A DNA stretch of 62,897 nt, the filler included, from a bacterium (lineage in GTDB: Bacteria > UBA9089 > CG2-30-40-21 > SBAY01), in the NCBI GenBank assembly GCA_040757115.1. It is 4 parts of 4 records of this genome, joined end to end, with 100 filler letters (N's around TTAATTAATTAA, not from the genome) between each part and the next. Parts side by side here need not be neighbours in the genome. Positions count along the whole stretch, not along the records: positions 1 to 15,873 come from JBFLYA010000081.1; 3 more parts are not named here. The stretch is one strand, 5' to 3'. The position numbers and the translations under genes were made by a program. The notes below the pieces were generated by a model. That model was not told the origin of the DNA. It saw only the letters and a program-made list of their open reading frames with translations, and did no database searches. Positions 1,363-19,923 of this stretch are shown piece after piece. Each line of letters begins with the position of its first letter. Within the stretch, counting starts at the first letter, position 1.

Positions 1363-1627
1363 CAATATTATTTATACCATAATTATTTCTAATTGTCAAT
1401 CAAAGAAACAAAAATGGGTGCGTGTAAAATTTGTAGGTAAAGTGTAAAAAAGGGGTTAGGGGAATAGTGGAGATATAGAAATGGCGTTCCTTCTTTTATT
1501 TTCGGCATAACTAATAATTTTCTTTATCTCTTTTTTCTTTTCTTTTTGATAACTTATTTAGTCTCTCTCCTTTTTTAAAAAAAGATGGGGAAGTTCTGTA
1601 TGGGGCTCTTTAGATATTCATTTATGT

Positions 1628-3349
1628 TCACATATTTTTGCTTTTACTTTCCTTTTTGATGTTCTGCAGACGCTGGATGGTTTTTTGAAGGTCATCAATA
1701 GATATATCCAGTTTATCAGCTAATTTTTCCTGGTTTTTTTCATACCTGGTAAGTTTTTCTTCAATAAACTTGAGGATTCTATTTTGCTTACTAAGTGCCA
1801 CTCTTAGATGCTCAGCTGATACCCCCCAACTTTCTGCCAATGCCTCAATATTTCCATGATGACCAGCCAGAGAGATAAATATGTGCTCCTTCTCTTGCTC
1901 AAAGTACTTATGCACTGTAGCATGGGAAATCTGTAGTCTTTTGCTTACCTGCTCCAAATTACCTCCTTTTTCTATATAGGTTTGGAGAAATTTAGAGCAT
2001 GGAGATTGTATTTTGGAGATTATAGGTTGAGGTGCTTTTGTAAGACTTGATTTATCAATGGGAGTTAATAGTAGCTTTTCAGAAGCAATAAAGTTCTTTA
2101 TCTCATCTATGGTTATTATATTATTACTCCGAAAATATACTGCCCGTTCAAGGATATGTTCCAGCTGTCTAACATTACCAGGATAATCAAACCCTTTCAG
2201 ATATTCTATAGCCTTATCTTCAAGAGATAACTCTTCTTTTTCCTCAATGCCAAATTTATGGATAAAGTGCCTTGCCAGATTTGGGATATCCTCAAGTCTT
2301 TCTCGAAGAGACGGGATATGAATTGGTATAACATTAAGTCTATAATACAAATCCTCTCTAAAAAAGCCTTCTTTTACTGCTTTTGCCAAATCCTTATTCG
2401 TAGCGGCAATTATCCTAACATCAATTGGAATTGGGTTAGGTGAGCCAAGGCGTTGAATTACCTTTTCCTGAATAGCTCTGAGTAACTTAGTTTGAATTTC
2501 TCCTGAAATCTCACCAATCTCATCTATAAATAGAGTAGTTCCATCTGCCTTTTCAAAATAGCCCACTTCATCCTTTATAGCACCAGTATATGCTCCTTTA
2601 TTATGTCCAAATAATGCTGATTCAATTAGATTTGATGAAAGGGCAGGGATAGATACTTCAATCATAAGGTTATTTTTACGAGGACTATTATAGTGAATAG
2701 CCGCCGCAATCATACCTTTTCCTGTTCCAGTTTCGCCTGTGAGTAATATTACTGGTTCGTATTTCTTCTGGCTAATTTTCTCAATAGTTTCATAGATATT
2801 ACGCATTGAAGAACTATTTCCTACTAAATTACCAAGATGATATTCGATTCCTTCAGCCTTTCTTAATTCATCAAAATTATATCGTTTCCTTTGGCGTTCT
2901 ACAGAATATTGAGTTTGACTTGAAAGTCGTAATTGAATCTTTTTATCCTTTACTTTCTCCAATGCGTTCCTGATAGCAGTCTGTAATCTTGTTGGGTCAT
3001 CACTCATTCTATCTTTAAGGATATAGTCGAATGCCCCTTTTTTCATCGCCTTAGTAGCATCATCTGCCCCTACTCCTACACCTGTAAGGACAATTACTTG
3101 AATCATAGAATCAAATTCTTTAATTTTCTCCAATAATCTAAATCCAATCTCTTCTGTGGCAAACCCTCCTTTTTCATGGGGTAACCGCAAGTCTAAAATA
3201 ACCACTTCTGGTTGTAACTTAAGGTTTTCAATTACTTCCTTTCCACTTGCCGCCTCATATACGGTATAATCTGATTTTAACTTTTTTACCACAAAGTGGC
3301 GAAAGGTTTCTTCATCTTCTACTACCAAAATGACATTACTTTTTGCCAT
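1628..3349 (-). CDS. Sigma54-dependent NtrC-type activator (REC-AAA+-HTH)
   Basis: REC (VVEDE, ILDL, VLTG, ILK); Walker A GETGTGKG; ESALFGH..GAYTGA; FIDEIGE; FREDLYYRLNV; PGNVRQL; ATG at 3349 with SD GAAGGGG. Confidence 0.95.
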   Translation of the reverse strand: MAKSNVILVVEDEETFRHFVVKKLKSDYTVYEAASGKEVIENLKLQPEVVILDLRLPHEKGGFATEEIGFRLLEKIKEFDSMIQVIVLTGVGVGADDATKAMKKGAFDYILKDRMSDDPTRLQTAIRNALEKVKDKKIQLRLSSQTQYSVERQRKRYNFDELRKAEGIEYHLGNLVGNSSSMRNIYETIEKISQKKYEPVILLTGETGTGKGMIAAAIHYNSPRKNNLMIEVSIPALSSNLIESALFGHNKGAYTGAIKDEVGYFEKADGTTLFIDEIGEISGEIQTKLLRAIQEKVIQRLGSPNPIPIDVRIIAATNKDLAKAVKEGFFREDLYYRLNVIPIHIPSLRERLEDIPNLARHFIHKFGIEEKEELSLEDKAIEYLKGFDYPGNVRQLEHILERAVYFRSNNIITIDEIKNFIASEKLLLTPIDKSSLTKAPQPIISKIQSPCSKFLQTYIEKGGNLEQVSKRLQISHATVHKYFEQEKEHIFISLAGHHGNIEALAESWGVSAEHLRVALSKQNRILKFIEEKLTRYEKNQEKLADKLDISIDDLQKTIQRLQNIKKESKSKNM

Positions 3350-3366
3350 TTTTTTATCCCCTTCTT

Positions 3367-3747
3367 TCAAGATTTTTTAAGGCATTTCTCAATAATATCA
3401 AGTACCTTTTCAAAAACTCCAAGAGTATCTTTCAGCAGACATTCAAAAGCACCTTTCCTCTTAGCATCTTCATAATCAAACTCCTTTGAACTCAAAATAA
3501 TTACCTGAATTTTAGGATTAGTTTTCTTGATTTTTTCTAATACCTCAAATCCCATATCAGTTTCCACCACTCCTCCTTGCTCTTCAGGAAATTCCATATC
3601 TAATATGACTACATCAGGATTAGTTTTAAGTTCTTCAATTGCCTCTTTTGCAGTCATAGCACTGCGTACTTCATATAACGGACTTATCTTTTCTTTCAAA
3701 AGATGACGGTACTCTTTTCTATCTTCCACAATAAGAATTTTAGCCAT
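3367..3747 (-). CDS. Single-domain response regulator
   Basis: ILIVED, VVILDM, IILSS, LLK receiver motifs; no output domain. Confidence 0.9.
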   Translation of the reverse strand: MAKILIVEDRKEYRHLLKEKISPLYEVRSAMTAKEAIEELKTNPDVVILDMEFPEEQGGVVETDMGFEVLEKIKKTNPKIQVIILSSKEFDYEDAKRKGAFECLLKDTLGVFEKVLDIIEKCLKKS

Positions 3748-3770
3748 TCTTTTATTCCACTCCTTTCTAT

Positions 3771-4763
3771 TTAAGGTTTATATGAAAATGCTATGATTTT
3801 ATCCTCGGGTAATTCCGTAGCATCAGAAAATTTATCCTTCCTTTTAATTATATCTCGTGTAGATTTAGAAATCAGTATCCCGTTTGTATCTGCGTTTTTT
3901 TGTAAATGTCCAGTGATATGGAGTACTTCTCCAAATGCCTTTTTTTCTTCCGAACTTAATATTACCTTCCCCGTATGAATCCCTATTCTAAAATTAAACT
4001 CCTCTTTTAATCTGTTCCTTTCCTTATTAAACCTACCTCTTCCCTCCAAAATACTAATTCCTGCATCTATTGCCTCATTTGGGTCTTCAAAATAACACAT
4101 TCCTTCGTCTCCAACTGAATTTAAAATCTCTCCCTTATGTTTAAGAACTGTCTCCTTAACATACTCATGATACTCATTTAACGAATAGATAATATTGATG
4201 TCTTTTCTTTCGTGATTTTTTTCTTCTCTCAGCATCTTTGTTGATTTAACCAGGTCAATGTCAAGGAATGTATATGTCTTAGTAAATTCTTTTCTAATGA
4301 TGTTATCTAATTCAAGTATCCTTTTGATTATTTCTATTAATGATAATGATTTTTCTGGTAAAATTTTTTGCCTTTTTAATAATGCCTTTTTTATCTCATC
4401 GATTAACTCTTGAGAATTTACCTCATCTTTTAAGAAATAGCTTACTGCTCCTTTATTAAAAGCCCGCCGAATAAACTTTCCATCATCCACTGTTCCACTA
4501 ATCATTATTATTTGAATATTAGGTTCAAATTCTAATACTATCTCTAATAAATCACCGCCAATTATCTCTGCCATACCCCCGATTCGCCATGGTAGCCCTA
4601 CATCCAGGATAATCACATCTGGCTTCAGGAGCATAATTCTTTTAAGCAATTCTATGCCTGTTCCCGCTTCAAATACTTCATAATTTGGTTTGAGCCACTT
4701 AACTATTCTTTTACGATAGTGATTATCATCATCAACCACTAAAATGATATTCTTTTCACCCAT
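3771..4763 (-). CDS. Response regulator with class III adenylate/guanylate cyclase output
   Basis: N-terminal REC (VVDDD, ILDV, MISG, FLK); cyclase motifs TFLDIDLVKST, VGDEGMCYF, FRIGIHTG, GILISKST. Confidence 0.88.
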   Translation of the reverse strand: MGEKNIILVVDDDNHYRKRIVKWLKPNYEVFEAGTGIELLKRIMLLKPDVIILDVGLPWRIGGMAEIIGGDLLEIVLEFEPNIQIIMISGTVDDGKFIRRAFNKGAVSYFLKDEVNSQELIDEIKKALLKRQKILPEKSLSLIEIIKRILELDNIIRKEFTKTYTFLDIDLVKSTKMLREEKNHERKDINIIYSLNEYHEYVKETVLKHKGEILNSVGDEGMCYFEDPNEAIDAGISILEGRGRFNKERNRLKEEFNFRIGIHTGKVILSSEEKKAFGEVLHITGHLQKNADTNGILISKSTRDIIKRKDKFSDATELPEDKIIAFSYKP

Positions 4764-4786
4764 TTCTATCCTTATTCTTTTTCTTT

Positions 4787-5674
4787 CTAAATAAGATTTC
4801 TTTTCTTCATAAAAAATTCTCTATCTTGTTCTGATGTCCAACATTTCCCAATGTATTCTTTTAGTAATATTACCCGATTATCTGCTGATACAAATTCTTT
4901 TATTCTATAATCATCCATTAATACAATGCTAATTTTATTCTCCCTTATGAGAACATCTTTAATATCGCTGGTAAAACCACTTGGAGAAATGTAAAGTGCA
5001 ACATTACACGATTCAAATCTAATATTCTCACTAATCTTACGAATAAATGCCCTCATCATTTCTGAATCCACTTTTTCTGACAGATTCTTACATTCAACAG
5101 GAATATTATATCCTACTCTCTGCCAGAATCCAAACCCAATCTCATTATTAATAAGAATATCTATTTCTGCAGCCGGTGGTCTTACATTTTTCCTTGCCGA
5201 AAAGCCATCAATACCGTTGAAAATATACTCCATAAGACTTTCTAAAATAGCACCTTTTTTGTTATTGTTATCTATTTCATTTAAACTTAGGCAAAATTCT
5301 ATGAGTAACAAAATAAATTCTAACGGTGACTTTTCTTTTCTTAACTGGAAATAAGGACTAATTTTCCCGAGAGGTTCTTTATAAATCTCTGTTTCTGTCC
5401 CGGTATAAATAATTATTTCTACATTTGGTCTGGTTTGTTTAATCTTTTCAAAGTAGTGCTCATCTATAACTTTTTCTATTCCATTTTTAAATTCCTTAAG
5501 TTTAAGGTCGGTAATAAGCAATTTGATATTGTCGGATGTCAATTTATCTATTACTTCCTCCTCAGAAGTGACTAAGATAGGAGTATAATTTCTTTTGCTC
5601 AATTCATCTTCTAAAAACTTTAAAGATATTTCATCATTGCATGCTATCAGAATATTCGGTTTTTGATTGTTCAT
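4787..5674 (-). CDS. Receiver domain fused to Mrr-like PD-(D/E)xK restriction endonuclease
   Basis: REC-like N-terminus (ILIACND, LLITDL, IIYTG, LRK); C-terminal KGAILESL...EIDILI...VECKN...ISPSGFT. Confidence 0.8.
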   Translation of the reverse strand: MNNQKPNILIACNDEISLKFLEDELSKRNYTPILVTSEEEVIDKLTSDNIKLLITDLKLKEFKNGIEKVIDEHYFEKIKQTRPNVEIIIYTGTETEIYKEPLGKISPYFQLRKEKSPLEFILLLIEFCLSLNEIDNNNKKGAILESLMEYIFNGIDGFSARKNVRPPAAEIDILINNEIGFGFWQRVGYNIPVECKNLSEKVDSEMMRAFIRKISENIRFESCNVALYISPSGFTSDIKDVLIRENKISIVLMDDYRIKEFVSADNRVILLKEYIGKCWTSEQDREFFMKKRNLI

Positions 5675-7281
5675 GATAAATTATTTCCTGCCTTAATAGG
5701 TAATTCAATAGGTAATTCAACACTAATCTTAGAACCTTCTCCTATTTTAGTCCACTCCACAAATATATCCCCTTTGTGTTTCTTCATAATGGTTTTACAA
5801 GATGATAGTCCCAAACCCATCCCTGTTTCCTTTTTAGATGTGACAAATAAATCAAAAATTTTCTCCCTCTCATCCTCTCTAATTCCACAACCATTATCTT
5901 CAAAAGATATAAAAATCTTCCTCTTATCCTCAGCAATAGATACGGTTATTCTAAGTATTCCTTCTTGTATATTTTTTATCTTTATGGCATCAATAGCATT
6001 TGAAATTAAATTACTAAAGACCATACCTATTTTCCCCTTATCAATATTAATCTCAATATCTTCTTTTGTAGGAATATCAGGCAATTTCGGAGGCTTTATC
6101 TTATTTTCGCTCATTTTTCCCCAATATTGGGTTAAGGCTTCTTCAAGGAGTTCATTTATAGTATTTATCCTGCAAGGTAATAAATTAAGTTCCCTTCTTC
6201 CTTTAGTGTAATTTCTTAACTCATCAACTATCATTTTTAATCTTTCTTTAATTCTTGTAATCTCTTGTAAGTTCTTTGTTTTAATATACTCTTCAAGAGG
6301 CATTATCAGGGGACTAATTTCATGAACTATTCCTCCACTTAATTTACCTAATTCTGCCTCTGTTTCTAATCTTTTTACTTCTCTAACTGATTCAATATAT
6401 TGAACGAAAATGGCAAGATGAGTGGCAATCTTTTGGATAAAAGGGATATCTTCCCTTAAGACTTCATGCTCTTTGGTCGTATAGATATTTATAAATCCTA
6501 TAAGTTTATTTCCTACTTTCAGGGGGATTAAAAGAAGAGTTTGACTTTCCTTAATAAGTTTTAACTCTTTGGACAAGGGATATAAAGGGTCACCTATTTT
6601 AATATCTCTTATCATCTTTATTTTTCCATCCTGGAGCAGCTTTAAATCAGATGATTTTAATTCTATCGACTTTTCTATCACATCTTTCTCTTTTTTTTCA
6701 GATACTTTTAAGCAAGATTTGATTATTGCTTTACTATCTCTTATAAGGAGAAGAACTCCTCCATCACATTTAAATAAGTGTTCCAACTTATTTATTAGAT
6801 GTAATACTTCTTCCAATCCTAACTCTTCTGTAACAAACTTCTCTGTAATAAGAAATAGATTTTCTAATTCTATAATCTTACGGTCTAATTCTGCCTTCAT
6901 CGCATGGTATTGAAATGCCTTTTCTATAACAACCCGAAGAGCCTCATTACTAAAAGGTTTTGTAATGTAATTAAAAGCTCCATCCTTCATTGCCTTAACT
7001 GCTGTGGAGATATTATTTACAGCCGTTAACATTATCACTTCCATCTCTGGTGCAAATTTCTTTATCTCAGATAAAACCCTCATCCCTTCATCAGATGTAT
7101 CCATAATTATATCCAGAAGTATCACTTGTGGTCCTTTATCTTTAGCTAATCTTATACCTTCTTCTCCATTAGGAGCTAATAATACCATATATCCTTCTTC
7201 TTCTAATGTTCTTTTCAACATATAGCGATGATTTTCATCATCTTCAATAACTAATAACTTTTTCTCCTTCATCTTTTTCAC
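5671..7281 (-). CDS. Hybrid histidine kinase (REC-GAF-HisKA-HATPase)
   Basis: REC (VIEDD, LLDI, MLTA, ITKP); GAF-like LLLIPLKVGNKLIGFINI; H-box IVHEIS; NLISNAID; EDNGCGI; GMGLGL. Confidence 0.92.
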   Translation of the reverse strand: MKKMKEKKLLVIEDDENHRYMLKRTLEEEGYMVLLAPNGEEGIRLAKDKGPQVILLDIIMDTSDEGMRVLSEIKKFAPEMEVIMLTAVNNISTAVKAMKDGAFNYITKPFSNEALRVVIEKAFQYHAMKAELDRKIIELENLFLITEKFVTEELGLEEVLHLINKLEHLFKCDGGVLLLIRDSKAIIKSCLKVSEKKEKDVIEKSIELKSSDLKLLQDGKIKMIRDIKIGDPLYPLSKELKLIKESQTLLLIPLKVGNKLIGFINIYTTKEHEVLREDIPFIQKIATHLAIFVQYIESVREVKRLETEAELGKLSGGIVHEISPLIMPLEEYIKTKNLQEITRIKERLKMIVDELRNYTKGRRELNLLPCRINTINELLEEALTQYWGKMSENKIKPPKLPDIPTKEDIEINIDKGKIGMVFSNLISNAIDAIKIKNIQEGILRITVSIAEDKRKIFISFEDNGCGIREDEREKIFDLFVTSKKETGMGLGLSSCKTIMKKHKGDIFVEWTKIGEGSKISVELPIELPIKAGNNLS

Positions 7282-7287
7282 TCTCCT

Positions 7288-10134
7288 TTAAACTGGTAAT
7301 TTGATGGTAAATGTTGTCCCTTCACCTTCCTTACTATCTACTTTAATGTTTCCTTTATGCTCTTTAATAATCCCACGACATATCCATAACCCTAATCCCT
7401 TACCTTTATGGCTCCCTCTGGTAAAGAATGGGTTGAAGATTTGATTAATATCTTTCTCGGGAATTCCCCCACCCGTATCTGATATTTCCACCTTTACAAA
7501 ATCATCTGTTGGAGGAAAAGTTTTTACCTCTAAACTACCTCCCTTTGACATAGACTGAATAGCATTTTTGATGATATTTATAAACACCTGCCCCAATTGT
7601 AATTGGTCAGCATTGACAGGAGGTAAATCTGGAGCTAAAACTATACTCGGAGTAATTGAATATTGGTGTAACTCTTGTTTTAACTGTCCTAATGCATCAT
7701 TTATGATGGTATTAATATCAATTGGTCTAAGATGAGGTGCTGATATTTTTGCCTCTTGTAAGCCATCAATCACCATTTGTGCTTGGTCAGTAGCCAGTTG
7801 TATCCTTCTTAAATCTTCATTTTGTGGCTCTTTTTTAAGCAATAATCCACTTAGTCCTTTAATAGTGCTTAATGGATTGCTAATCTCATGTGCCGCCCTA
7901 TCAGCTAATTCACCAATTGAGATTAATCTTTCAGATTCTAATCGTTCCATCTCTCTCTTTAATCTTTCCTCATATATCTTATTATATTTCTGGTTTACCT
8001 TTTCAACCATCTCTTCCTCATTAACTACCATACCAATTTGCTCTCCAACAATTGATAAGAATTCCATATCATCATTGTCAAAAGAGTTGGGTATAACACT
8101 TTGGACTGCTAATACCCCAACGGTATTCCCCTCAAATTCTGAAGGCACTGCTAATTCCTCTCCATTTCCATTTATTTTAGAAATTTTGTGTGATTTTCTC
8201 TCCCTCCCAACTATTCCAATGACTCCATCTCCTAATTTATATTCACTTGCCTGTGACCAATTTATATCAGATTTTATCTTTAATCTTCCGTCTTTGAGTT
8301 CAAAAAAGGCACATTCAGCCACATTAATTCCTTCAAATACCTTTTTTACAATTTGGGACAAAATGGTTGAAAATTCCTTATCAGAAGATATTATTTTTGA
8401 GATTTCATTTAATATATGTAGTTGTTCACAGATAGTCTTATGTTTAATCATAAGGGTTATTTGCTCGGTTAAAAAAGAGATGAAATTTCTATCTGTTTCA
8501 CTTATTGGAGAGTTTGAGTTATAGACAGCTAATATACCAAGAGATTTATTTTCATTTACTAAAGGAATTGCCAATACTGAACCTTTCTCTCCAAACTGAA
8601 GTTTAAGAAAAGAATCTGTTTTTGCATCTTCTTCTATATCAGGATTAAAATAGTCCTGCCCTTCTAATATAACCTCAACAAGATGTGGTTTTCTTTCTAT
8701 TTTCTGTGTAAGATCAATCCAAAATTTATCTTTAGAGATTTGATTTTCAGAGTCAACTATCTGGTCACATTTAAGTTTTCCTTCCTTTCTATCTATCAAA
8801 TATAAATAACTCCTTTCAAAATTGAAGTATTTTACAATTGCCTCTAATATATTCTTCAATATTGTATCAAGAGGAAGTTTATTTAACATTGAGATAGTAA
8901 CGTTAGTGATTAGACCTACCTGCATTTGAGAAATTCTTGCCACATTCTTTAACTCATCTTGCTTCATATTGTCATAATAATCCTTAAAATCTATGGATGC
9001 CTTTCCATATTCTTTTTTTCTAATGTAAATTCGAGCAAAGTACTCTTTAGTGAAATGTCTCTTTAAAATATCCTTATAAAGAGGAGTTCTTATTTTAATC
9101 TTATTACCATCTCTGATAATTATTCCCGATAACTCAAGTTTTCTAAAACTTGCATCCCATTGACCAACAATATAGATATCTTCTTTGTCATAGAGCAAAG
9201 TTTCTAATATCTTCAATAATTCTAAGTCTTTCTCCAAATCCCGTTCAATTTTTAAAGTTAGGAAAGTAAAAGTTTCATCTTCATCCATTCCTATTTGCTC
9301 AACAGATTCTTTAAATTCTTCCATGGTTATATGTTCTATTCCTTGTTTTAGCTTTCGTTGGGCTGTATCAAATAAGATATAACATATTTTTTGAACTAAG
9401 TAAGGGTGCCCTTTTGTTATCTCATAAAGTCTATTAACACAATCTGGAGTTATCTTAATTCCAAATATCTCAAGTTGTTGAATAAACACTAATACTTCTT
9501 CCTTTCGAAAATCCCGTAGGATTATTGGTTTGGCTATATTAAAAGGAGAAGTTTTATCATCTTGTCCTATTGTTAGCTCAAATAAATCTACTGTTCCTGA
9601 AATTAAAATATTAATCTTTGAATAACTTGGATTTATAGTAGATTCATTATATATTGTCCTTAAAACCAATAGCAATTCTCTGGCTATTTCTTTAGGTAAA
9701 ATCTCTATCCCATCAAGTAAAAATAATATCTTAGAATCTATCTTTGATGCAATATTTTCAAGGAAATATCTAAAGAGACTTGCATTTCTTATGATTGTTC
9801 CTCCAGTCATCCCACCCAGTCCTTTTTTTCGGACATGAAAAATAATATACTGGGCTAAATGTTGGTAGAAGGTTTCTAAGTTATAATCTTTAATCTTTTC
9901 AAAATTAATATAAATGGAATAATAATGAAGGTGGTTGTCTTTATTAATTTCGCCCATCAGTTGGTAAATAAATGTTGTCTTACCTGTATGATTAGGGGCT
10001 AATAGACTAAAGTAATTTCCCCTTTTTAGACCAATTATTACATCATCTATTTCTGCCTTTCTAATAATGGACACTGCCTTATCTTTCTCCTGGTCAAGCG
10101 CTCTATCATAGACAAATGGATTTATCTTTTCCAT
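7288..10134 (-). CDS. STAND/AAA-like ATPase-GAF-GAF histidine kinase
   Basis: NPFVY...LLAPNHTGKTT, FLLDGIE, SPFNIAKPIILRDF, TKGHPYLVQ (AAA_35-like); two GAF-like segments; AAHEISNPL; NIIKNA; SDTGGGI; GKGLGL; no hydrophobic TM stretch seen. Confidence 0.88.
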   Translation of the reverse strand: MEKINPFVYDRALDQEKDKAVSIIRKAEIDDVIIGLKRGNYFSLLAPNHTGKTTFIYQLMGEINKDNHLHYYSIYINFEKIKDYNLETFYQHLAQYIIFHVRKKGLGGMTGGTIIRNASLFRYFLENIASKIDSKILFLLDGIEILPKEIARELLLVLRTIYNESTINPSYSKINILISGTVDLFELTIGQDDKTSPFNIAKPIILRDFRKEEVLVFIQQLEIFGIKITPDCVNRLYEITKGHPYLVQKICYILFDTAQRKLKQGIEHITMEEFKESVEQIGMDEDETFTFLTLKIERDLEKDLELLKILETLLYDKEDIYIVGQWDASFRKLELSGIIIRDGNKIKIRTPLYKDILKRHFTKEYFARIYIRKKEYGKASIDFKDYYDNMKQDELKNVARISQMQVGLITNVTISMLNKLPLDTILKNILEAIVKYFNFERSYLYLIDRKEGKLKCDQIVDSENQISKDKFWIDLTQKIERKPHLVEVILEGQDYFNPDIEEDAKTDSFLKLQFGEKGSVLAIPLVNENKSLGILAVYNSNSPISETDRNFISFLTEQITLMIKHKTICEQLHILNEISKIISSDKEFSTILSQIVKKVFEGINVAECAFFELKDGRLKIKSDINWSQASEYKLGDGVIGIVGRERKSHKISKINGNGEELAVPSEFEGNTVGVLAVQSVIPNSFDNDDMEFLSIVGEQIGMVVNEEEMVEKVNQKYNKIYEERLKREMERLESERLISIGELADRAAHEISNPLSTIKGLSGLLLKKEPQNEDLRRIQLATDQAQMVIDGLQEAKISAPHLRPIDINTIINDALGQLKQELHQYSITPSIVLAPDLPPVNADQLQLGQVFINIIKNAIQSMSKGGSLEVKTFPPTDDFVKVEISDTGGGIPEKDINQIFNPFFTRGSHKGKGLGLWICRGIIKEHKGNIKVDSKEGEGTTFTIKLPV

Positions 10135-10136
10135 GA

Positions 10137-12212
10137 TTATATTATCCCCTCCTTTAGACTTTCTTTTAATATATATTTTCTCTCTATATTATTTTTTATT
10201 ATTGTTGGAAGTCTATCGAATAAAAAGGAATATTCTTTTCCATTCTTATCCAATACTCCTAATAGAATGAGATTATCCATATCTTTATCCACCTCATCAA
10301 TTTTAATAACTATTCCTTCGTTCTTCAGGGTATGGTGAATTGTCTCAAAAGAAATAGGTGGTTTCATATTGATAATATTAAAAATGATACTCCGCTTCAG
10401 GTTATCTTTATCAAAGGTTGGCAAAAATATGTTAAGGAGATCCCTCTCAAAATTAGAATCCATATAAATTCTATTAATTAAACTATCCGAGACAATCCTA
10501 TTATTACTCTTTGACAAACTTTCAATCAATTTCTCACAAAAAGCCTGGATACAACTTGGATGAAGTGATACTAAATTAAGAATTTTATCGATATTTTTTA
10601 TAGGGTCTATAAAGCTTACGCCAAGGTTTCCCATTGGTTCTCGAATTAAATTCTCTCCACCTGGTTTGTCTAAGACAGAAAGATGAATAGATTTAGTAAA
10701 GTGATAAAGAGGTGAATCTATATCTTTAGTTTGAAAATATAGCACCTTAAATCCAGCCATAATACATCTACAATAACCGTTAAATGCTAAATCCCTGAGG
10801 GCTGAGATGAGTAAATATCCATTCTTTTTATCTATATCAATAAGATTGTCAATCTCATCCAGCAAAAAGATAACCCTTTCATTTTTAACACTGAAATACC
10901 TAAAAAATGATAACATATCCTTTATTTCCTCCGTTGGGATTTCTAACCGGTGACATACTAATGAGAAGAAGTCTTCATAATCTCTACAAATACTGCAGTC
11001 AATAAAGATAACCTTACTATCTCCATTCTTTTCCATCTCTTTCTTTACTTTTAATAGTAAGGATGTTTTACCCATCCTTCGTCCTCCAACAATGGTATAA
11101 TTTACACCTTTATTCTCCATAAGTTCTTTGATTTCTTTTTGTCTGCCATAGAAATTTTTTGTAGGACCAAGTGAACAATATGGAGATACCTGACGCAAAC
11201 CTATCTGCTCAACTATACATTTGATAAAGGCTTTCTTAGAATCATAGGCAGAAAATACCTTTTTTAAATCCTCCTTATTTAGTACCACAAGTTGATAAGC
11301 AGAATTTTTTACCCATTGCTTAAGTTTTGTAGAATCTTTATCGGCTATGATAAAAGATATATCATTTTGAACCTTTTCTCTTCTGATAATATTTTCTATA
11401 TTCGAAATAATATCCTTATTTATTTCTGGCACTACCATAAATAGAGAATCCTCCTTCTTCATTTTAATTCTCATCCTTTCTATGTCAATCTTAAAATAGA
11501 TTATTTGTTGTGCAGAAACTTGTTTTTTAATCTCAAATCCTACAAATTTCGCCAAATTACCTAATAAGTTAGATAATCTCTCACCATCTCCAGTTTCAAT
11601 TGATTCTAAACTATCAAGAATTGGAGATATAATCCTTCGCCGCTCGTCACTCAATAGTACCTCAGGAAGAATATTATCCTTTCCTATACCTGAAATAGTC
11701 ATTTTTGCTTCTTTTCTGTTGTCAACCACACATTTTTCTAAAATCAACCTAATGTCTTGTAAAGTAAATTCCGAGGTATCTATGACTAAATTCGCCTCTT
11801 TTCTTAATCCTTCTAAATATCTCCGTTCAATTTTAATATTCTCTAATAGTCCTCTCCGTCTTCCCCATGGATGTGGTCTTCCTGTCTTTTCATATCGATG
11901 TTTAATTACCTCATCAGAAGCATCTAAGAATATAAGTTTATAATCAATACCTATTTCAGATAGTTTCTTTAGATTAGAAAATACTCCATTTGAAAGTCCT
12001 ACTTCTCCTGTATCAAGTACAAGACAATAGGATTTTCTCTTACTTTTACCGTTAATACAAGTTCTTACAAATTCTGGTAGTAGAGAGGGAGGTAAATTCA
12101 CTACATGATGATATTCCATATCCTTAAAACATTTTGCCGCTTCGCCTTTACCTGCACCAGAAATACCGGCAATAATAACAAATTTAATCATTTTAGCCAT
12201 TTCATTTGTCAC
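10137..12212 (-). CDS. RapZ N-terminal P-loop domain fused to a STAND-type ATPase
   Basis: N-terminal GISGAGK, VVNLPP, IFLDASDEVIKHRYEKTGRPHP, VIDTS (RapZ/YvcJ-like); C-terminal SPY..GP..NFYGR, VGGRRMGKTSLL, FLLDEID, HP..IQ; GTG start with SD AGGGGG. Confidence 0.82.
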   Translation of the reverse strand: MTNEMAKMIKFVIIAGISGAGKGEAAKCFKDMEYHHVVNLPPSLLPEFVRTCINGKSKRKSYCLVLDTGEVGLSNGVFSNLKKLSEIGIDYKLIFLDASDEVIKHRYEKTGRPHPWGRRRGLLENIKIERRYLEGLRKEANLVIDTSEFTLQDIRLILEKCVVDNRKEAKMTISGIGKDNILPEVLLSDERRRIISPILDSLESIETGDGERLSNLLGNLAKFVGFEIKKQVSAQQIIYFKIDIERMRIKMKKEDSLFMVVPEINKDIISNIENIIRREKVQNDISFIIADKDSTKLKQWVKNSAYQLVVLNKEDLKKVFSAYDSKKAFIKCIVEQIGLRQVSPYCSLGPTKNFYGRQKEIKELMENKGVNYTIVGGRRMGKTSLLLKVKKEMEKNGDSKVIFIDCSICRDYEDFFSLVCHRLEIPTEEIKDMLSFFRYFSVKNERVIFLLDEIDNLIDIDKKNGYLLISALRDLAFNGYCRCIMAGFKVLYFQTKDIDSPLYHFTKSIHLSVLDKPGGENLIREPMGNLGVSFIDPIKNIDKILNLVSLHPSCIQAFCEKLIESLSKSNNRIVSDSLINRIYMDSNFERDLLNIFLPTFDKDNLKRSIIFNIINMKPPISFETIHHTLKNEGIVIKIDEVDKDMDNLILLGVLDKNGKEYSFLFDRLPTIIKNNIERKYILKESLKEGII

Positions 12213-12269
12213 CCCCCTATCATCTTATTTAATATTTCTTAATAAATTTCCCTTTTGTCTTAAAAGAGT

Positions 12270-12286
12270 AGCAAATTTTATGCCAG
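12270..12286 (-). promoter_or_regulatory. Sigma54 (-24/-12) promoter of the signalling operon
   Basis: Minus strand CTGGCATAAAATTTGCT = GG-N10-GC with TGGCA and TTGC boxes, ~60 bp upstream of the first gene. Confidence 0.75.
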
Positions 12287-12537
12287 GGTAGCAGTAAATT
12301 TAGTTTTCATCCCAATAGAGTAAAACAATACATACATTTTTAATCTTATCACTTATCCATGACCAAAATTTCCTATCCGTCCTTTACTATACAAATTTCA
12401 ACTTTCTGCATATACATTTTACCAAAGATTGTATAAAAAAGCAAGTTGTTTTTCAACTGAGCTGATAAATCGAAAGTAAAAATTTACGGATTGGGAGTAA
12501 AGAGTGGATTTGTAAAAAATATGACCGATTAAGTAAT

Positions 12538-14039
12538 CTATCTATTCTCTTTGGGGTGAAGCAGGGCAAGAATTTCTTTTATCGTCTGTCCGTGGGCCTC
12601 CGCAGATTCAAGAATGTTTACGATACGGTTTCTCTCTGCCTCTTTAACTAAATTTCCATATTGCCTCGTGGTAAATAAACCAAGTCCCCCTTTTGGTGTA
12701 TATACAACTATACTTAACCCTCCTAATCCAGTCGCCCATTTTCCTGAAAGTCTATACCTCTGATCCTGCCAGGCATCAGGATGTCTCATCTTCATAATAT
12801 GTTCCGAGTTGTAAAGCATTAACGCAAAAGTAATCCGTGCATTTATCGTATTAAATTTACGACCTGCAAGCCTCTCAATTTTCCATCGCTGGTTAAGTTC
12901 CCTAAACCCCTGATTCTCAATTATCCATCTTGAACGATAATAATTCCTTATTTTAAAAGGGTTCTTTATCGTAGGTAAAGAAGTGATATACTGAACTGGA
13001 CGACGGATACTGCTATCCTCATTATGAAGAGAATTCCCTTTTATGTCCCTCTCATCCGAAACAACTGCATTAGTTAACCCTATTTGATTGCCCTTTTCAT
13101 CATAAAGAGGGATACCTTCAATCCCTGTTGATCTAACCTTTATCTCGCCAAATTGGCTGTGTTCCTCCCTCCTCCATATCCACTTAACATCCCCTCCTTC
13201 TATACACATCTCTATATATTTAACTACCTCAAGCCTTTCATCTCTGGCTCTGGTTACATAATCTATTCCAAAATCCCTCTTTAATCCTGTCAAATATTCA
13301 GCCCCCCACTATCCTCTATCCATGGCTAACACATCCATCCACTCTCTCAATGGTGCAATCTCCTGGTTAAGACGCAAAAGCATCTCACGAAGCATTACCT
13401 TCTCACTGGTCTGAAGCGGTACCAGAGAAAAACCAACTATCCGTTCACGATTAGCCGTTATATTCAACAACAACACCAATTTGTATCCCCTCTTACTTCC
13501 TACTTGCCCAATGTTCTCATACTTCTTCCCATAGGGAATAATTATCTCCATAGCATCTGCAAGGTATACCTTACCACGAATCCAACGTCGTTCCCTCAAT
13601 AGACGAACATGCTTTGTAAAATTATGCAAAACATTTGAAACTCCAATCCTTGCAAGATGATTAGACAGTATCTCAGGATCAATAACCAATTTACCTCTCT
13701 TTTTTGCCAACTCTACATCCTCTACATTAAAAATCCAGCAACTAACATCAATCGTGCATCGGATAATACCTTCCCACACTGACTGATTGCTTCTATATCT
13801 GCTAATTCGCGAAGGATTTCTATACTATTAAGAACTCGGGGAGATTTGCCATTTTCCTTCTTCAACTCTGTAGGCTGCATACTTACCATCGTTTCCCATA
13901 ACCCACTCCTCACCAAAAATTCTATCCAAAAATCATTCTCCCCATAACCTGATAAAACCGCCTCATACTCCTCCTTTTCCACTATTGCTTTCTCACAAAC
14001 AGAATTGTTGTGAAACCAAACCTTATACCCTTTATCCAT
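12538..14039 (-). pseudogene. DDE transposase (IS4-superfamily-like), frameshifted and with an in-frame stop
   Basis: Motifs YLADA, AMDRG*W, YYRSRWIIENQGFRELN; frameshift in a T run near 13730; in-frame TAG at 13309-13311. Confidence 0.85.
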
Positions 14040-14412
14040 CTTTTTCCTCCTCCCTAAAGGGTTCTTTAGATTGTGCCTTTCCTAATTCCCTGAACAATTC
14101 CCTAACTTCATTACTTATCTTCCACCACTTTGTAAGATATCTATTGAATTCGCACCACTGGGAAGTTTCCTTCTTCATCCGTAGCAATTCTTGTTTTTTG
14201 ACATATTTCAATTTGGTTTTCCCAGATATCTTGCCTGATAAATAATAAGCAGAAGAACTTCTCTTCTTTGCTGATGTTCCAAGTCTACGTTTAATCAAAC
14301 ATACCATTATCATCTCTCTGTGTCTTAAAAGAGCTTTTTCCATATCTTGTTTCTCTTCAAGTTTTCTGGAAATTTTCTGTCTTATTTGATTTGCCATTTG
14401 CCTATCTTTCAT
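14032..14412 (-). CDS. Small basic IS-associated protein (DUF6788-like)
   Basis: AYYLSGKISGKTKLKYV pattern; overlaps the transposase start; lies inside the IS inverted repeats. Confidence 0.65.
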   Translation of the reverse strand: MKDRQMANQIRQKISRKLEEKQDMEKALLRHREMIMVCLIKRRLGTSAKKRSSSAYYLSGKISGKTKLKYVKKQELLRMKKETSQWCEFNRYLTKWWKISNEVRELFRELGKAQSKEPFREEEKDG

Positions 14413-14656
14413 AGTATCAGTATTATATATTACTGATACTTGTCAAGAAAAAAATACAGATAGGATAAAAATTTTTTGCCCTATCTGTAACTATTGATAT
14501 TTATTGATGTTACAGAACTTTCGATTTATCAGTCATTTTTGGGAGAAGGGAACTGCATCGTTCCAGTCCCCTTCCCCCAAACCTCTGTCCTCTGCGATAC
14601 GCCTTGACAGCCGTGATAATTGGGTGGTAGGGGATCGCTTTGCTCCCTTTTTTTTA

Positions 14657-15727
14657 TTATATTACGGCTGTTGAATCTTTGGTTATAGGATTATTAAATT
14701 CATCCTGTCGCTCGAGTCTAAATACCTCTGAGACAGTCCCCGCAACCGCAAATTGAGGTGCCAAAAGAAGGACTAAATGCTTTTCAGACGGGGTTAAAAT
14801 ACAGCCGTGTAGAGATATGGTTGTTTGCGTGTCGGAAGTAGCTAAATACGACTGGCTATTGTAAGTTCCAGGGGATTGTCCCACCGGATAATCTAACCAT
14901 AGGTATAGGGTTTGTGTTGCCCCTTGTTCTGAAGTAGCGGGATAAGTGCCCATAGTTTGATAAGTAGGCGTGACGGTATTCTGAAGACTACTCGTATTGG
15001 TTAAGGCATAACCTAACGGGCCAGGCAAGGATATAGTGCCACCATTTTCACCAATAAAATCCTCTGCCTTAATCTGTAAGATATAGTTGCTGTTAGAAAT
15101 AATATTGAGATTAATAGGAGAAGTAAGCGGATTATCATTTGTATCGGCAAAAGAAGAGGTAAAAAAGGCATCCTGGCTATCAATGTTTATCTCGCTGTAA
15201 TAGGCGTTACTAATATTTATTTCACCTGATACATCCTGGGATTGGTTTGTATAACATACGACCACTTTAATCTTCCAATCAGAATTTTGTTGATACCTTG
15301 CTATTTTGCCTGGAGTAAAAACTAATTTCAAAGTTCCTGTCCCGGTAGTAGAAGTAGCAATTTTACAATTATCTTTATCAATAGTCCAGGTAGAACTTAA
15401 TGGACCAACTAATTTCCAGCCGTCATTTTTACTCCATTGATAAGTAGCGTGGTCGATTGAGGTATCTGTTCCTTTTTCTGAATTTGTTGTTCCATCCCAG
15501 ATATAGAAATTAACTCCATAGATAACATCAAATTCATCAAAGACCTGGACCAAAAGTGTCATTTCATCATTTGGAGTCATTTGTGAAGTAGAAGTAGTAG
15601 TTTGGCCGTTATCATCTTCAAAAAGTGTTACTGTTCCTACTTGCGGAATATAAGCCTCGCTGAGATTATAAGTCAGGATTAAAAATCCTATTAAAATAAT
15701 CTGGAGTTTCGTGAATTTATTCATCAT
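14657..15727 (-). CDS. Secreted protein; C-terminally truncated paralog of the 1-1362 gene
   Basis: Signal-peptide-like start; stops 5 codons after the repeat ends, whereas copy 1 continues. Confidence 0.7.
   Translation of the reverse strand: MMNKFTKLQIILIGFLILTYNLSEAYIPQVGTVTLFEDDNGQTTTSTSQMTPNDEMTLLVQVFDEFDVIYGVNFYIWDGTTNSEKGTDTSIDHATYQWSKNDGWKLVGPLSSTWTIDKDNCKIATSTTGTGTLKLVFTPGKIARYQQNSDWKIKVVVCYTNQSQDVSGEINISNAYYSEINIDSQDAFFTSSFADTNDNPLTSPINLNIISNSNYILQIKAEDFIGENGGTISLPGPLGYALTNTSSLQNTVTPTYQTMGTYPATSEQGATQTLYLWLDYPVGQSPGTYNSQSYLATSDTQTTISLHGCILTPSEKHLVLLLAPQFAVAGTVSEVFRLERQDEFNNPITKDSTAVI
14672..15700. repeat. ~1.03 kb direct repeat, copy 2
   Basis: Matches 325-1353. Confidence 0.95.
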
Positions 15728-15873
15728 GGTTTAACCATAACCTTGGAATATAAATTCCAAATTTCAAATAACAAATTCCAAATAAATTCCAAGCACCAAA
15801 TTCCAAAACCTATTGCTTTATCAATTTTGTTAAAGGGAGTTGAATATTTTGCTCAATAATGTCAGATTTAGGT

Positions 15874-16341: not shown

Positions 16342-19300
16342 ATGGCAGAATCTAATCAAAATTTCTCATTTGAAAATGATATAGAAGACCTATTGGGTGA
16401 TTTAGGAGTAGTAGTAGAAAAAAAAACGGAATCAGAGGAAGAAAAAATATCTGAATTACCGGCTAAACAAGAAATCTCTCCTACTCCGCCAGAATCACCG
16501 GTTGAACTTGAAGAAGAACCCCCCGCCCCGGCTGAAGAAGAAAAGGTTGCCCCAGAAACTAAAGAAAAAGCACCAGAAGTAAAGGAAGAAGAATTGCCGG
16601 CTAAACAAGAAATCTCCCCTACTCCGCCAGAATCACCGGTTGAACTTGAAGAAGAACTACCCGCCCCGGTTGAAGAAGAAAAGGTTGCCCCGGAAATCGA
16701 AGAAGAAACACCGCAAGTAAAGGAAGAAGAATTGCCGGCTAAACAAGAAATCTCCCCTACTCCGCCACCGTCACCGGTTGAACTTGAAGAAGAACTACCC
16801 GCCCCGGCTGAAGAAGAAAAGGTTGCCCCGGAAATCGAAGAAGAACCACCACAAGTAAAGGAAGAAGAATTGCCGGCTAAACAAGAAATCTCCCCTACTC
16901 CACCAGCATCACCGGTTGAACTTGAAGAAGAACTACCCACGCCGGTTGAAGAAGAAAAGGTTGCCCCGGAAATCGAAGAAGAACCACCACAAGTAAAGGA
17001 AGAAGAATTGCCGGCTAAACAAGAAATCTCCCCTACTCCACCAGCATCACCGGTTGAACTTGAAGAAGAACTACCCACCCCGGTTGAAGAAGAAAAGGTT
17101 GCCCCGGAAATCGAAGAAGAAACACCACAAGTAAAGGAAGAAGAATTGCTGGCTAAACAAGAAATCTCCCCTACTCCGCCAGAATCACCGGTTGAGATTG
17201 AAGAAGAACTACCCGCCCCGGCTGAAGAAGAAAAGGTTGCCCCGGAAATCGAAGAAGAAACACCACAAGTAAAGGAAGAAGAATTGCTGGCTAAACAAGA
17301 AATCTCCCCTACTCCGCCAGAATCACCGGTTGAGATTGAAGAAGAACTACCCGGCCCGGTTGAAGAAGAAAAGGTTGCCCCGGAAATCGAAGAAGAAACA
17401 CCGCAAGTAAAGGAAGAAGAATTGCCGGCTAAACAAGAAATCTCCCCTACCCCGCCAGCATCACCGGTTGAACTTGAAGAAGAACCACCCGCCCCGGCTG
17501 AAGAAGAAAAGGTTGCCCCAGAAACTAAAGAAGAAGCACCAGAAGTAAAGGAAGAAGAATTGCCGGCTAAACAAGAAATCTCCCCTACTCCGCCAGAATC
17601 ACCGGTTGAGATTGAAGAAGAACTACCCGGCCCGGTTGAAGAAGAAAAGGTTGCCCCGGAAATCGAAGAAGAAACACCGCAAGTAAAGGAAGAAGAATTG
17701 CCGGCTAAACAAGAAATCTCCCCTACCCCGCCAGAGTCACCGGTTGAACTTGAAGAAGAACTACCCGTCCCGACTGAAGAAGAAAAGGTTGCCCCGGAAA
17801 TCGAAGAAGAAGCACCAGAAGTAAAGGAAGAAGAATTGCCGGCTAAACAAGAAATCTCCCCTACCCCGCCAGCATCACCGGTTGAACTTGAAGAAGAACT
17901 ACCCGCCCCGGTTGAAGAAGAAAAGGTTGCTCCAGAAATCGAAGAAGAAGCACCAGAAGTAAAGGAAGAAGAATTGCCGGCTAAACAAGAAATCTCTCCT
18001 ACCCCGCCAGCATCACCGGTTGAACTTGAAGAAGAACTACTCGCCCCGGTTGAAGAAGAAAAGGTTGCCCCAGAAACCAAAGAAGAAGCACCAGAAGCAA
18101 AGGAAGAAGAATTGCCGGCTAAAGAAGAAATCTCCCCTACTCCGCCAGTGTCGCCGGTTGAACTTGAAGAAGAACCACCCGCATCCGTAGAACAAGAAAT
18201 ACCTGAATTAGAAGAGACATCGATACCTGTTGAAGAGGAGGTCAAGGAAGAAATTATGCCTGAAGAAAAAATACCTATTATTGAAGAAGAGATACATAAG
18301 GAAGAAGAACATGGAGAGGCGTTTGAAACAATCATTACCGAAGACCACTTTGAAGAAATTAAAGAACTAAAAGAAGAACTCCCACGCCCTCTTCCCAAAA
18401 CTCCAAAACACAAGAAAGAAAAAGTGTCCATTCTCCCATTTTTAAAAAGAGGACTACAAATTCTCTTTTTAGGTATTGTGATAACCGGGATTTTATCATT
18501 GAGTTATCCAGCTTACCTATATTTCTATAAACCATATCAACATTTTAAATCCGGAGCAAATTATATTCAATCTAAAAAATTTGATAAGGCAGAAGATGAG
18601 TTTAAAGAGGGATTAAGTTTTGTTCGAGGGAAAAGAGGGAAGATTAATGCTTATAATCAATTTGGTGAAGTTTATTTAAAGGTAAATGAGTATAAAAAGG
18701 CGGAGCAAAAATTCAATCAAGCCCTTCTTATAGCCCCAGATTACCCTGTTACTAAAAATAATCTTGTCAAACTTCAAATCCAAAAAGGTCATTTAAAAGC
18801 AAGTGAAGAGATGTGTAAAGAGATTTTATCCGCACATCCTACAAATATACCAACTTATGTTAATTTAGCCAGGGTATTACTTATGACTTCACGACCCGAA
18901 GGCGCAGTTAAATGTTTAAAATATGCCCTTTCTGTAAATAAAAAAGATATAGAGGCCTTATCCCTATATCAACATGCGTTAGCTAAAGCAGGTAAACATC
19001 GTGAGTCATTAAGTATTCATCGCTATCTATACCAGCTTGTCAAAGGTAAAAGATTATATTATCCTGATGATTTGACTGATATTGGACACATTTACTTGAA
19101 AAAGGGAGATTTATTTACTTCAGCCGATATTTTTCACCTGGTCTTAAGACATTATCCCAAACACAGTCGGGCAAGATTTCTATTATCTCAAGTATTACTT
19201 AAGGAATACAAGGTAGATGAGGCAATAAAAGAGCTTGAAAAAACAACGAAATATAATCCAAACTACGACCCTGCTTATACGCTTTTAGGTCAGGTTTATT

Positions 19301-19923
19301 ATGATAAAAAGATATACGATAAGGCATTAATCCGATTTCATAGAGCGACTATGATTAATCCTGAAAACAATGCGGCTTTTGAAGGAATGGGAAATGTTTA
19401 TTATTATCATTTAAATGCCTATAAGGAGGCGGCAAATGCCTATGCAAAAGTAAAAACAACTTCACTTCAAACAAAGTATAATTTAGCTACCTGTTTTTAT
19501 AAAACAGGTCAATTTGATAAAGCCCTTGAACTGTGGAAAAGATTTCCACCAATTCCTGTAATTAACTATAATCTGGCTAATACCTATGTCCAGTTACATA
19601 ATTTAGACCAGGCAATGAAAGAATATGAAGATTTGATAAATTTTTATAAAGAGAAGATAAAAGCAAGTGCTATTCAACGAGAAAGAAAGGAGATGTATCA
19701 AGAATTAAGCGAGATTTATAATAATGTCGGGGTAGTGACCGAATTACAAGGAGAAGGTAAAAAGGCACTTTCTTACTATTGGCAAGCATTAGAATTTGCC
19801 TCTTTAGCCGATGGAGAAAATAAACCCGCCTACAATAACCTTAATCGAACCTTTAACTTAGAAGGTTTAAGTTCTGTTACTCAAGCACTAAATGATGTAA
19901 AAAAGGTAACCGTTCAACCATAG
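16342..19923 (+). CDS. Membrane-anchored TPR protein with a long acidic Pro/Glu repeat region
   Basis: 46-aa repeats, one TM (ILFLGIVITGILSLSYPAYLYF), many TPR-like motifs (AYNQFGEVY, AYTLLGQVY, YNLANTY, YNNVGVV). Confidence 0.9.
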   Translation: MAESNQNFSFENDIEDLLGDLGVVVEKKTESEEEKISELPAKQEISPTPPESPVELEEEPPAPAEEEKVAPETKEKAPEVKEEELPAKQEISPTPPESPVELEEELPAPVEEEKVAPEIEEETPQVKEEELPAKQEISPTPPPSPVELEEELPAPAEEEKVAPEIEEEPPQVKEEELPAKQEISPTPPASPVELEEELPTPVEEEKVAPEIEEEPPQVKEEELPAKQEISPTPPASPVELEEELPTPVEEEKVAPEIEEETPQVKEEELLAKQEISPTPPESPVEIEEELPAPAEEEKVAPEIEEETPQVKEEELLAKQEISPTPPESPVEIEEELPGPVEEEKVAPEIEEETPQVKEEELPAKQEISPTPPASPVELEEEPPAPAEEEKVAPETKEEAPEVKEEELPAKQEISPTPPESPVEIEEELPGPVEEEKVAPEIEEETPQVKEEELPAKQEISPTPPESPVELEEELPVPTEEEKVAPEIEEEAPEVKEEELPAKQEISPTPPASPVELEEELPAPVEEEKVAPEIEEEAPEVKEEELPAKQEISPTPPASPVELEEELLAPVEEEKVAPETKEEAPEAKEEELPAKEEISPTPPVSPVELEEEPPASVEQEIPELEETSIPVEEEVKEEIMPEEKIPIIEEEIHKEEEHGEAFETIITEDHFEEIKELKEELPRPLPKTPKHKKEKVSILPFLKRGLQILFLGIVITGILSLSYPAYLYFYKPYQHFKSGANYIQSKKFDKAEDEFKEGLSFVRGKRGKINAYNQFGEVYLKVNEYKKAEQKFNQALLIAPDYPVTKNNLVKLQIQKGHLKASEEMCKEILSAHPTNIPTYVNLARVLLMTSRPEGAVKCLKYALSVNKKDIEALSLYQHALAKAGKHRESLSIHRYLYQLVKGKRLYYPDDLTDIGHIYLKKGDLFTSADIFHLVLRHYPKHSRARFLLSQVLLKEYKVDEAIKELEKTTKYNPNYDPAYTLLGQVYYDKKIYDKALIRFHRATMINPENNAAFEGMGNVYYYHLNAYKEAANAYAKVKTTSLQTKYNLATCFYKTGQFDKALELWKRFPPIPVINYNLANTYVQLHNLDQAMKEYEDLINFYKEKIKASAIQRERKEMYQELSEIYNNVGVVTELQGEGKKALSYYWQALEFASLADGENKPAYNNLNRTFNLEGLSSVTQALNDVKKVTVQP
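16453..18190 (+). repeat. 138-bp coding tandem repeat, ~12.5 units
   Basis: GGCTAAACAAGAAATCTC recurs every 138 bp; unit LPAKQEISPTPPxSPVELEEELPAPVEEEKVAPEIEEETPQVKEEE. Confidence 0.95.

Follow-up and report, generated by a model that had tools for sequence, protein, structure and literature searches.

Proteins of the RapZ/YvcJ/Rv1421 group consist of an N-terminal adenylate-kinase-like domain with a P-loop of the form GxSGAGK (PF03668) and a C-terminal domain that binds glucosamine-6-phosphate (GlcN6P) and RNA (PF22740; PDB 5o5o, 9m1q, 9m1v). The isolated N-domain of a mycobacterial member is monomeric; UDP, UDP-N-acetylglucosamine (UDP-GlcNAc), UDP-Glc, ATP, and ADP stabilise it, whereas GlcN6P does not (PMC11229554). 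Bacillus subtilis YvcJ binds UDP-GlcNAc with an apparent dissociation constant of about 0.3 mM, a value with a large error, and substitution of its Walker A lysine (K22A) abolishes binding (PMC7525490). In Escherichia coli, the RapZ N-domains form homodimers whose contacts comprise the YCVD strand, the NLP linker, and the helix that follows (PMC5737377). GlcN6P is bound there by the C-domain and not the N-domain, and RapZ stimulates autophosphorylation of the kinase QseE, which requires both domains and oligomerisation to a tetramer (PMC7073468). As for the N-domain's own job, these papers show nucleotide and UDP-GlcNAc binding and no output. Here, a RapZ N-domain without its usual partner is described from a stretch of 62,897 nucleotides, filler included (the window), of the bacterial assembly GCA_040757115.1, in which it forms the head of a STAND ATPase encoded next to a histidine kinase.

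A second described system for comparison is the nSTAND2 two-gene system, in which STAND genes are also adjacent, one of them eroded and the output variable, and for which a hetero-oligomer has been predicted (Kaur et al. 2021; PMC8195603). Its outputs are GT4 or HEPN domains, whereas those found here are histidine kinases, HD-GYP, and CHAT, and the active member here also has a restriction-endonuclease (REase)-fold domain and a variable head. PF20702 did not match either STAND protein of the window at E<=0.01, and it matched a relative from genome G020 weakly (E=3e-5). The order of NTPase, helical domain, and winged helix is shared with SSO1545 (PDB 2fna) and ORC/Cdc6, which are only 13-17% identical and have no head domain. 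We know of no kinase-relay role for SSO1545 or ORC/Cdc6. The fusion is neither a RapZ nor a formal nSTAND2 member, but works along the lines of the two-gene active/inactive STAND systems, with outputs for signalling in place of toxic ones. It represents a domain swap that is rare yet conserved, within a broader paired-STAND family of signalling proteins that has apparently not been studied. No description of a RapZ-STAND fusion or of a STAND-pair kinase relay was found in the literature covered, most subscription journals lying outside that coverage. RapZ, YvcJ, YhbJ, and ATP_bind_2 had 0 matches in the supplements of PMC8195603 (without file 13 and with file 4 in part) and PMC7159879.

The window consists of four contigs joined by N runs, and the fusion locus lies on contig G000:C443 (window positions 1-15873) of the source genome, G000, which has a length of 4.3 Mb, a G+C content of 36.8%, and a completeness rating of 99.87%. 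Residues are numbered on the form of 691 amino acids (aa); the database version (P0002) starts at an in-frame ATG at position 12200, is 687 aa long, and is numbered 4 lower. An earlier note on this DNA had assigned the first ~165 aa to the RapZ/YvcJ P-loop domain, and the profile search agreed, with a match to RapZ-like_N (PF03668) at E=3e-35, above the family cut-off. The NCBIfam profile for RapZ (NF003828) scored 122.7 bits, where the cut-off is 244, and only positions 1-162 of its 278 were matched. The head was predicted to have an adenylate-kinase-like fold, and its matches to RapZ-family N-domains had Z scores of 15-17 (9m1v: Z 17.3, root-mean-square deviation (rmsd) 2.5, 154 residues aligned; E. 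coli RapZ: Z 14.9). The note's statement that the RapZ C-domain is missing was also confirmed, since no PF22740 match was found across G000. The fusion head is the sole RapZ N-domain of that genome. Compared with RapZ, the fusion lacks the C-terminal domain, has three near-invariant residues changed (V38, G69, and G111 replace the canonical D, R, and R), and is joined to a REase-fold/STAND module.

The fusion is real, and is neither a chimera nor a decaying passenger. Two further full-length fusions, P0003 (60% identical) and P0004 (40%), aligned over 99% of its length among 7999 scored candidates, so the fusion is not unique to this assembly and a chimera is refuted. The three heads formed one clade with 0.95 support in a midpoint-rooted FastTree tree of 51 rows, from which 12 of 60 loci had been dropped as short, late-starting, or duplicate. 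They grouped near the RapZ of their own phylum at 0.78 support only, and we claim no donor. Conservation of the head (64% and 48%) is on a par with that of the NTPase core (64% and 50%). A 13,152-base contig of a second assembly covered window positions 1358-14509 with 0 differences; the one sequencing run that contains the stretch, a groundwater metagenome, may be the source sample, so this match is not independent biology. No RNA run containing the stretch was listed. P0003 and a 945-aa kinase orthologue, P0173, were each found on a Logan contig of 5637 bases, from the equal size probably the same contig. The fusion is rare. An exhaustive search of 50% clusters returned P0002 and P0004 as the only whole-length matches among the best 150, a GTDB pattern scan gave 7 loci with 1 fusion, and a metagenome scan gave at least 53 loci with no new fusion among the matches listed. 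No plasmid match was found at E<=1e-10. A search with the P0004 head among proteins of 378-1204 aa found P0004 only and missed the two other known fusions, and is thus too insensitive to bound the family.

The linker behind the head had been read as possibly an inactive REase fold, and this reading stands. Folded alone (aa 180-345) with 38 aligned sequences, it reached a predicted local distance difference test (pLDDT) score of 86.7. Its best structural matches were FokI (Z 9.7, rmsd 3.7, 146 aligned), N.BspD6I (9.2), R.BspD6I2 (8.8), and AF1548 (7.7), against Z 6.5 for the best unrelated row; Foldseek gave no match to this fold under E=0.001. Asp243 was kept in 33 of the 38 rows, although the (D/E)xK motif was missing on strand 3, the string occurring in just 3 of 38 rows and at unaligned loop positions. 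The remainder of the protein is a STAND ATPase, referred to here as STAND-A, with a winged-helix-like tail, as the note had also stated. Its Walker A (G376-K382, GGRRMGKT) and Walker B (D452-E453, LLDEID) are intact, and the Walker residues G, R, G, K, S and D, E, D were invariant in all 37 rows of the STAND-A family. The resemblance to SSO1545 and ORC/Cdc6 was seen by Foldseek with a low-confidence model (pLDDT 56), and aa ~200-690 matched an nSTAND1-labelled Atlas cluster with a template-modelling score of 0.84. An Arg after Walker B, a candidate arginine finger, was kept in 29 of 37 STAND-A and 33 of 35 STAND-B rows (STAND-B being the partner described below). NLR-like and Avs STANDs have a C-terminal repeat sensor (TPR, WD40, or LRR). 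Domain and structure searches found no C-terminal repeat family in the fusion, which stops after the winged-helix region. The protein is predicted to be soluble, with no hydrophobic segment above 1.1 on the Kyte-Doolittle scale. Since the full-length fold was built from 3 sequences only (pLDDT 56, predicted template-modelling score 0.31), it is uninformative about how the domains pack. A deeper mixed alignment (A3) was discarded, as it placed headless linkers onto the RapZ domain.

The earlier note overlooked that the 948-aa kinase encoded next to the fusion opens with a second STAND module (AAA_35; STAND-B), and that this pairing is kept with or without a RapZ head. The comparison set contains 25 genomes from the phylum of G000. 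A profile search of 401 genomes gave nine matches at E<=1e-30, six over the whole REase-fold/STAND module and three over the NTPase part only, which were not counted. In all six whole-module genomes, the downstream gene begins with a second STAND followed by an output: a histidine kinase in G000, G024, G020, and G120, HD-GYP in G006, and CHAT in G077. The heads are RapZ-N in two, a beta-propeller in two, and none recognised in two. Therefore, RapZ-N occupies a swappable input slot, and the conserved unit is the STAND gene pair, not RapZ plus kinase. The head position is read as an input because of the receptor layout in G077, where L111:1709-8734 (-) encodes a propeller head with an apparent signal peptide, a transmembrane helix, and the REase-fold/STAND module, then a STAND-CHAT protease. 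Beyond these genomes, the REase-fold/STAND module is part of a large family, with 312 representatives matched at E<=1e-30, some of them perhaps via other domains. Among 49 further representatives scanned, the heads included beta-propellers, second STANDs, TIR, caspase, Ser/Thr kinase-FHA, and EAD7, and some had none. The wider pattern is one of pairs in which the heads of STAND-A and the outputs of STAND-B are interchangeable. STAND-A retains the Walker B D-E in 37 of 37 rows, and STAND-B has Gly for the Walker B Glu in 5 of 5 paired partners (alignment A5); the STAND-B motif is degenerate in G120 and intact in G077. G000 also contains a second STAND cluster (L025:396-8453, G000:C178), with a propeller-STAND gene, an HD-like/STAND in two frames with cyclase-like and TPR parts, and a duplicated STAND-TPR gene; these domain names were assigned by eye.

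A functional connection with the neighbouring two-component operon had been proposed, and the gene order supports it. In G024, from another family of the same phylum, the fusion is followed by STAND-GAF-GAF-GAF-kinase, receiver (REC), REC-cyclase, and REC-sigma-54 activator genes, as can be compared with the window operon in Table 1. The single G024 kinase corresponds to the front of the window's first kinase (32%) and the back of the second (37%). In both genomes, a sigma-54 (-24/-12) motif directly precedes the fusion gene. In the window, it is the sole strict match, where 0.09 were expected from shuffles (9 of 100 shuffles contained one); across the genome there are 14 strict matches, and ~0.0005 would be expected on one strand of the 328-base gap upstream of the fusion. 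The motif was not found at the four loci with other heads.

Table 1. Features of the fusion locus and of related loci. Positions are those of the window except for the L loci.
Feature	Position	Strand	Evidence or remark
Fusion gene, 691 aa: RapZ-N / inactive REase fold / STAND ATPase (STAND-A)	10137..12212	-	open reading frame from GTG and domain matches
RapZ-like N-terminal P-loop domain, aa 9-163; GISGAGK P-loop intact; D38, R69, R111 positions altered	11724..12188	-	Pfam, alignment, structure match
REase-fold domain without (D/E)xK, aa ~189-340	11193..11648	-	predicted fold, structure matches, alignment
STAND NTPase (STAND-A), intact Walker A and B, helical domain, winged-helix tail, aa 341-691	10140..11192	-	motifs, structure matches
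Sigma-54 (-24/-12) promoter-like motif, 57 bases before fusion GTG	12270..12285	-	strict pattern match
STAND-B (AAA_35, Walker B DG) / GAF / GAF / histidine kinase, 948 aa	7288..10134	-	domain matches; 2-base gap after fusion gene
REC / GAF / histidine kinase, 536 aa	5671..7281	-	domains; kinase half 37% identical to C-terminus of single G024 kinase
REC / Mrr-type nuclease, 295 aa, EID...ECK motif intact-looking	4787..5674	-	domains; no counterpart in G024 operon
REC / class III cyclase domain, 330 aa	3771..4763	-	domains; G024 has counterpart
Stand-alone receiver, 126 aa	3367..3747	-	domains; G024 counterpart at 44%
REC / sigma-54 activator, 580 aa	1628..3370	-	domains; G024 counterpart at 41%
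Orphan STAND-B/GAF/GAF proteins, about 720 aa, lacking kinase and STAND-A partner, in three genomes of the G000 family	L130:2636-4801, L131:3956-6205, L126:474-2639		

From these findings, a relay from a ligand-gated head through STAND-A and a STAND-STAND contact to the kinase can be proposed, and we give it an even chance; its contact and binding steps are those that we infer. The head P-loop would bind a nucleotide or nucleotide-sugar without turnover, UDP-GlcNAc being the best-precedented candidate by analogy with RapZ homologues. Ligand binding would shift the nucleotide or oligomer state of STAND-A, STAND-A would then touch STAND-B and thereby gate the kinase, and phosphate would pass to the receivers and the sigma-54 activator, with possible feedback on the operon's own promoter. 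The fusion probably acts on the adjacent kinase via this STAND-STAND contact rather than via RapZ-N. The retained and lost residues of the head bear on the binding step. All three fusions retain the whole P-loop with K22, as well as N39, P41, D67, R106, and H114-P115, and the 691-aa fusion also retains the DT motif. By analogy with nucleoside monophosphate (NMP) and shikimate kinases, the altered positions are metal, acceptor, and lid residues. The simplest reading of their loss, on that analogy, would be a binder without substrate turnover. The note had suggested that the head senses a nucleotide or sugar phosphate; the nucleotide part is plausible (PMC11229554, PMC7525490), while the sugar-phosphate part lacks support, since the isolated N-domain does not bind GlcN6P (PMC7073468).

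The combination of RapZ-N, STAND, and kinase suggests, at the level of sequence, a new route for a metabolic signal into gene control. The fusion also offers a natural experiment in which an isolated RapZ-N is coupled to a measurable output, namely kinase phosphorylation or a sigma-54 promoter. If a STAND-STAND contact does gate the histidine kinase, signals would enter a two-component system by a new route. More specifically, a rapZ-less lineage could have kept RapZ-N as a sensor of UDP-GlcNAc or another nucleotide-sugar, acting via an active/inactive STAND hetero-oligomer on a kinase phosphorelay and a self-activating sigma-54 loop. We regard this version as doubtful and put it forward tentatively. 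If it is true, the locus would hold a cell-wall-precursor sensor built independently of E. coli RapZ-QseE/QseF, which would give the RapZ N-domain alone a physiological job and provide an entry to an undescribed class of paired-STAND relays. These implications rest on three sequences from uncultured hosts.

Several observations weigh against the proposed relay. Only three fusions are known in all, two of them with full context, and 4 of the 6 whole-module genomes come from one phylum, so these kin are not independent. G002, G004, and G005, from the family of G000, carry a kinase-less STAND-B/GAF/GAF gene of about 60% identity, and no whole STAND-A was found in these genomes, which are 88-96% complete; seen from STAND-B, the pair is thus not obligate. 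Upstream of the orphan STAND-B, G004 and G005 have unrelated genes, while the contig of G002 stops at this point. Across 48 canonical RapZ domains, 31 columns reach a conservation of 90% or more; the head keeps 22 of them, compared with 25 in P0003, 26 in P0004, and 26-31 in the canonical rows. In all three fusions, Gly replaces the first Arg of ETRR, a residue present in each of the 48 canonical domains. Two of the three have lost the VDN Asp, and two the DIR Arg, where the alignment of P0004 is blurred by an insertion. The homologue that binds UDP-GlcNAc retains all three of these residues, so the ligand of the fusion may differ or not exist.

This erosion of presumed ligand residues would fit a head that is structural and senses nothing, either dimerising STAND-A or holding it auto-inhibited. 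E. coli N-domains homodimerise (PMC5737377), each of the three fusions has retained N39 and P41, and Khan et al. suggest that the N-domain may be auto-inhibitory (PMC7073468). We consider this unlikely, however, because the whole P-loop, D67, R106, and H114-P115 were retained in three fusions across 40% divergence, the mycobacterial N-domain was monomeric when isolated (PMC11229554), and relatives work headless. It seems quite unlikely that the operon is instead a counter-invader (defence) system, in which RapZ-N would act as a decoy or as bait towards a protein of the invader, and the receiver-Mrr nuclease would be the effector. Operons of two STAND genes, one of them eroded, have been predicted to be conflict systems (PMC8195603, section 15), and decoys consisting of inactive host-enzyme copies have been described in such systems (PMC7159879); TIR, caspase, EAD7, and CHAT domains occur in relatives, and the REC-Mrr protein of the window has an intact-looking motif. 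Yet there was no strong PADLOC match, the fusion's hits there being at E~1e-3 over about 40-50 P-loop residues, the G024 operon is without the nuclease, and plasmids gave no match at the threshold above. Kinases, a cyclase, and a sigma-54 activator make up most of the outputs, with a sigma-54 motif in front of them. In addition, orthologue identities of about 60% within the family, like those of the neighbouring surface-protein gene (56-60%), look like vertical descent.

The earlier note had suggested a direct action of the head on the adjacent kinases; in the form weighed here, RapZ-N would dock on the kinase catalytic core or a response regulator and activate it as RapZ does QseE/QseF. In its favour, RapZ stimulates QseE, two-component control has been speculated to be the primordial role of RapZ (PMC7073468, PMC7430671), a RapZ domain lies here too upstream of a kinase and a sigma-54 activator, and tethering by STAND could perhaps offset weak affinity. 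However, stimulation needs both domains and the tetramer, and the separated N-domain binds neither QseE nor QseF efficiently nor GlcN6P (PMC7073468), which removes the footing of the analogy. The E. coli circuit senses by the C-domain and a tetramer, whereas here there is the N-domain only, a soluble kinase, and two STAND modules between them. With the kinase pairing conserved without any RapZ head as well, docking lacks support and has only a small chance of being correct. That the head is still an enzyme, be it an NTPase, a phosphatase, or a small-molecule kinase, and supplies the GAF domains through its product or turnover is very improbable. YvcJ is cited in PMC7525490 as having NTPase and phosphatase activity, the fold is adenylate-kinase-like, and P0004 keeps the VDN and DIR motifs, but the lid arginine is lost in all three fusions and the strand-2 Asp in two, catalytic roles that we infer from the NMP/shikimate kinase folds. 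An assembly chimera or a decaying passenger domain, to which the 9 changed positions of 31 and the rarity of the fusion might point, is scarcely credible given three full-length sequences in one clade, a head as conserved as the ATPase core, and a second assembly that spans the gene.

Regarding the history of the locus, rapZ of this phylum lies in a ptsN-hprK-rapZ arrangement, with pheA next in 5 of the 7 loci read, and the fusion is found away from it. hprK directly adjoins pheA in G000, G001, G004, G020, and G024, so canonical rapZ is gone from the locus in both fusion-bearing genomes. RapZ-N was found in 0 of 5 family members of G000. Since canonical rapZ is also missing in relatives without the fusion, the fusion is not a simple rapZ replacement. 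An origin inside a canonical rpoN-rapZ operon was considered and rejected because of the ptsN-hprK-rapZ position of the phylum's rapZ; the gene upstream in G024 encodes a short, divergent sigma-54-like protein, 29% identical over 157 aa to the RpoN of G000. This G024 gene (L023:1944-3017, +), just before the fusion gene, encodes 357 aa with a changed RpoN box, carries its own upstream sigma-54 motif, and is the sole PF04552 match in G024, which is 83% complete. The operon was not found in G001, of the same genus as G000. The idea of a recently acquired mobile cassette, to which this absence, the direct repeats, and the insertion-sequence remnant described below might point, is weakened because the kinase STAND-B has family-level orthologues at ordinary identity.

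Other observations concern the neighbouring genes. Class III cyclases have an N...R motif at positions where the cyclase domain at 3771-4763 (-) has H...H and its G024 counterpart N...R, and the window cyclase is possibly inactive, judging by these residues. The usual motif of sigma-54 activators is GAFTGA; the activator at 1628-3370 (-) has GAYTGA and its G024 counterpart NVATGV. The operon is flanked by direct repeats of 1029 bases (window 325-1353 and 14672-15700; 98.3% identical, no gaps), which correspond to the start of a large secreted (surface)-protein gene. The upstream copy ends at 356 aa, and relatives have a single copy in a frame of 1700-2050 aa. Directly upstream of the promoter, window positions 12538-14412 (-) contain split DDE-transposase-like frames and a DUF6788-like open reading frame, in single copy in the genome. 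The operon and this insertion-sequence remnant between direct repeats are a local rearrangement. On another contig of the window, positions 16342-19923 (+) encode a protein of 1193 aa that contains about 600 aa of tandem repeats rich in Pro and Glu, together with a hydrophobic segment and a TPR-like C-terminus.

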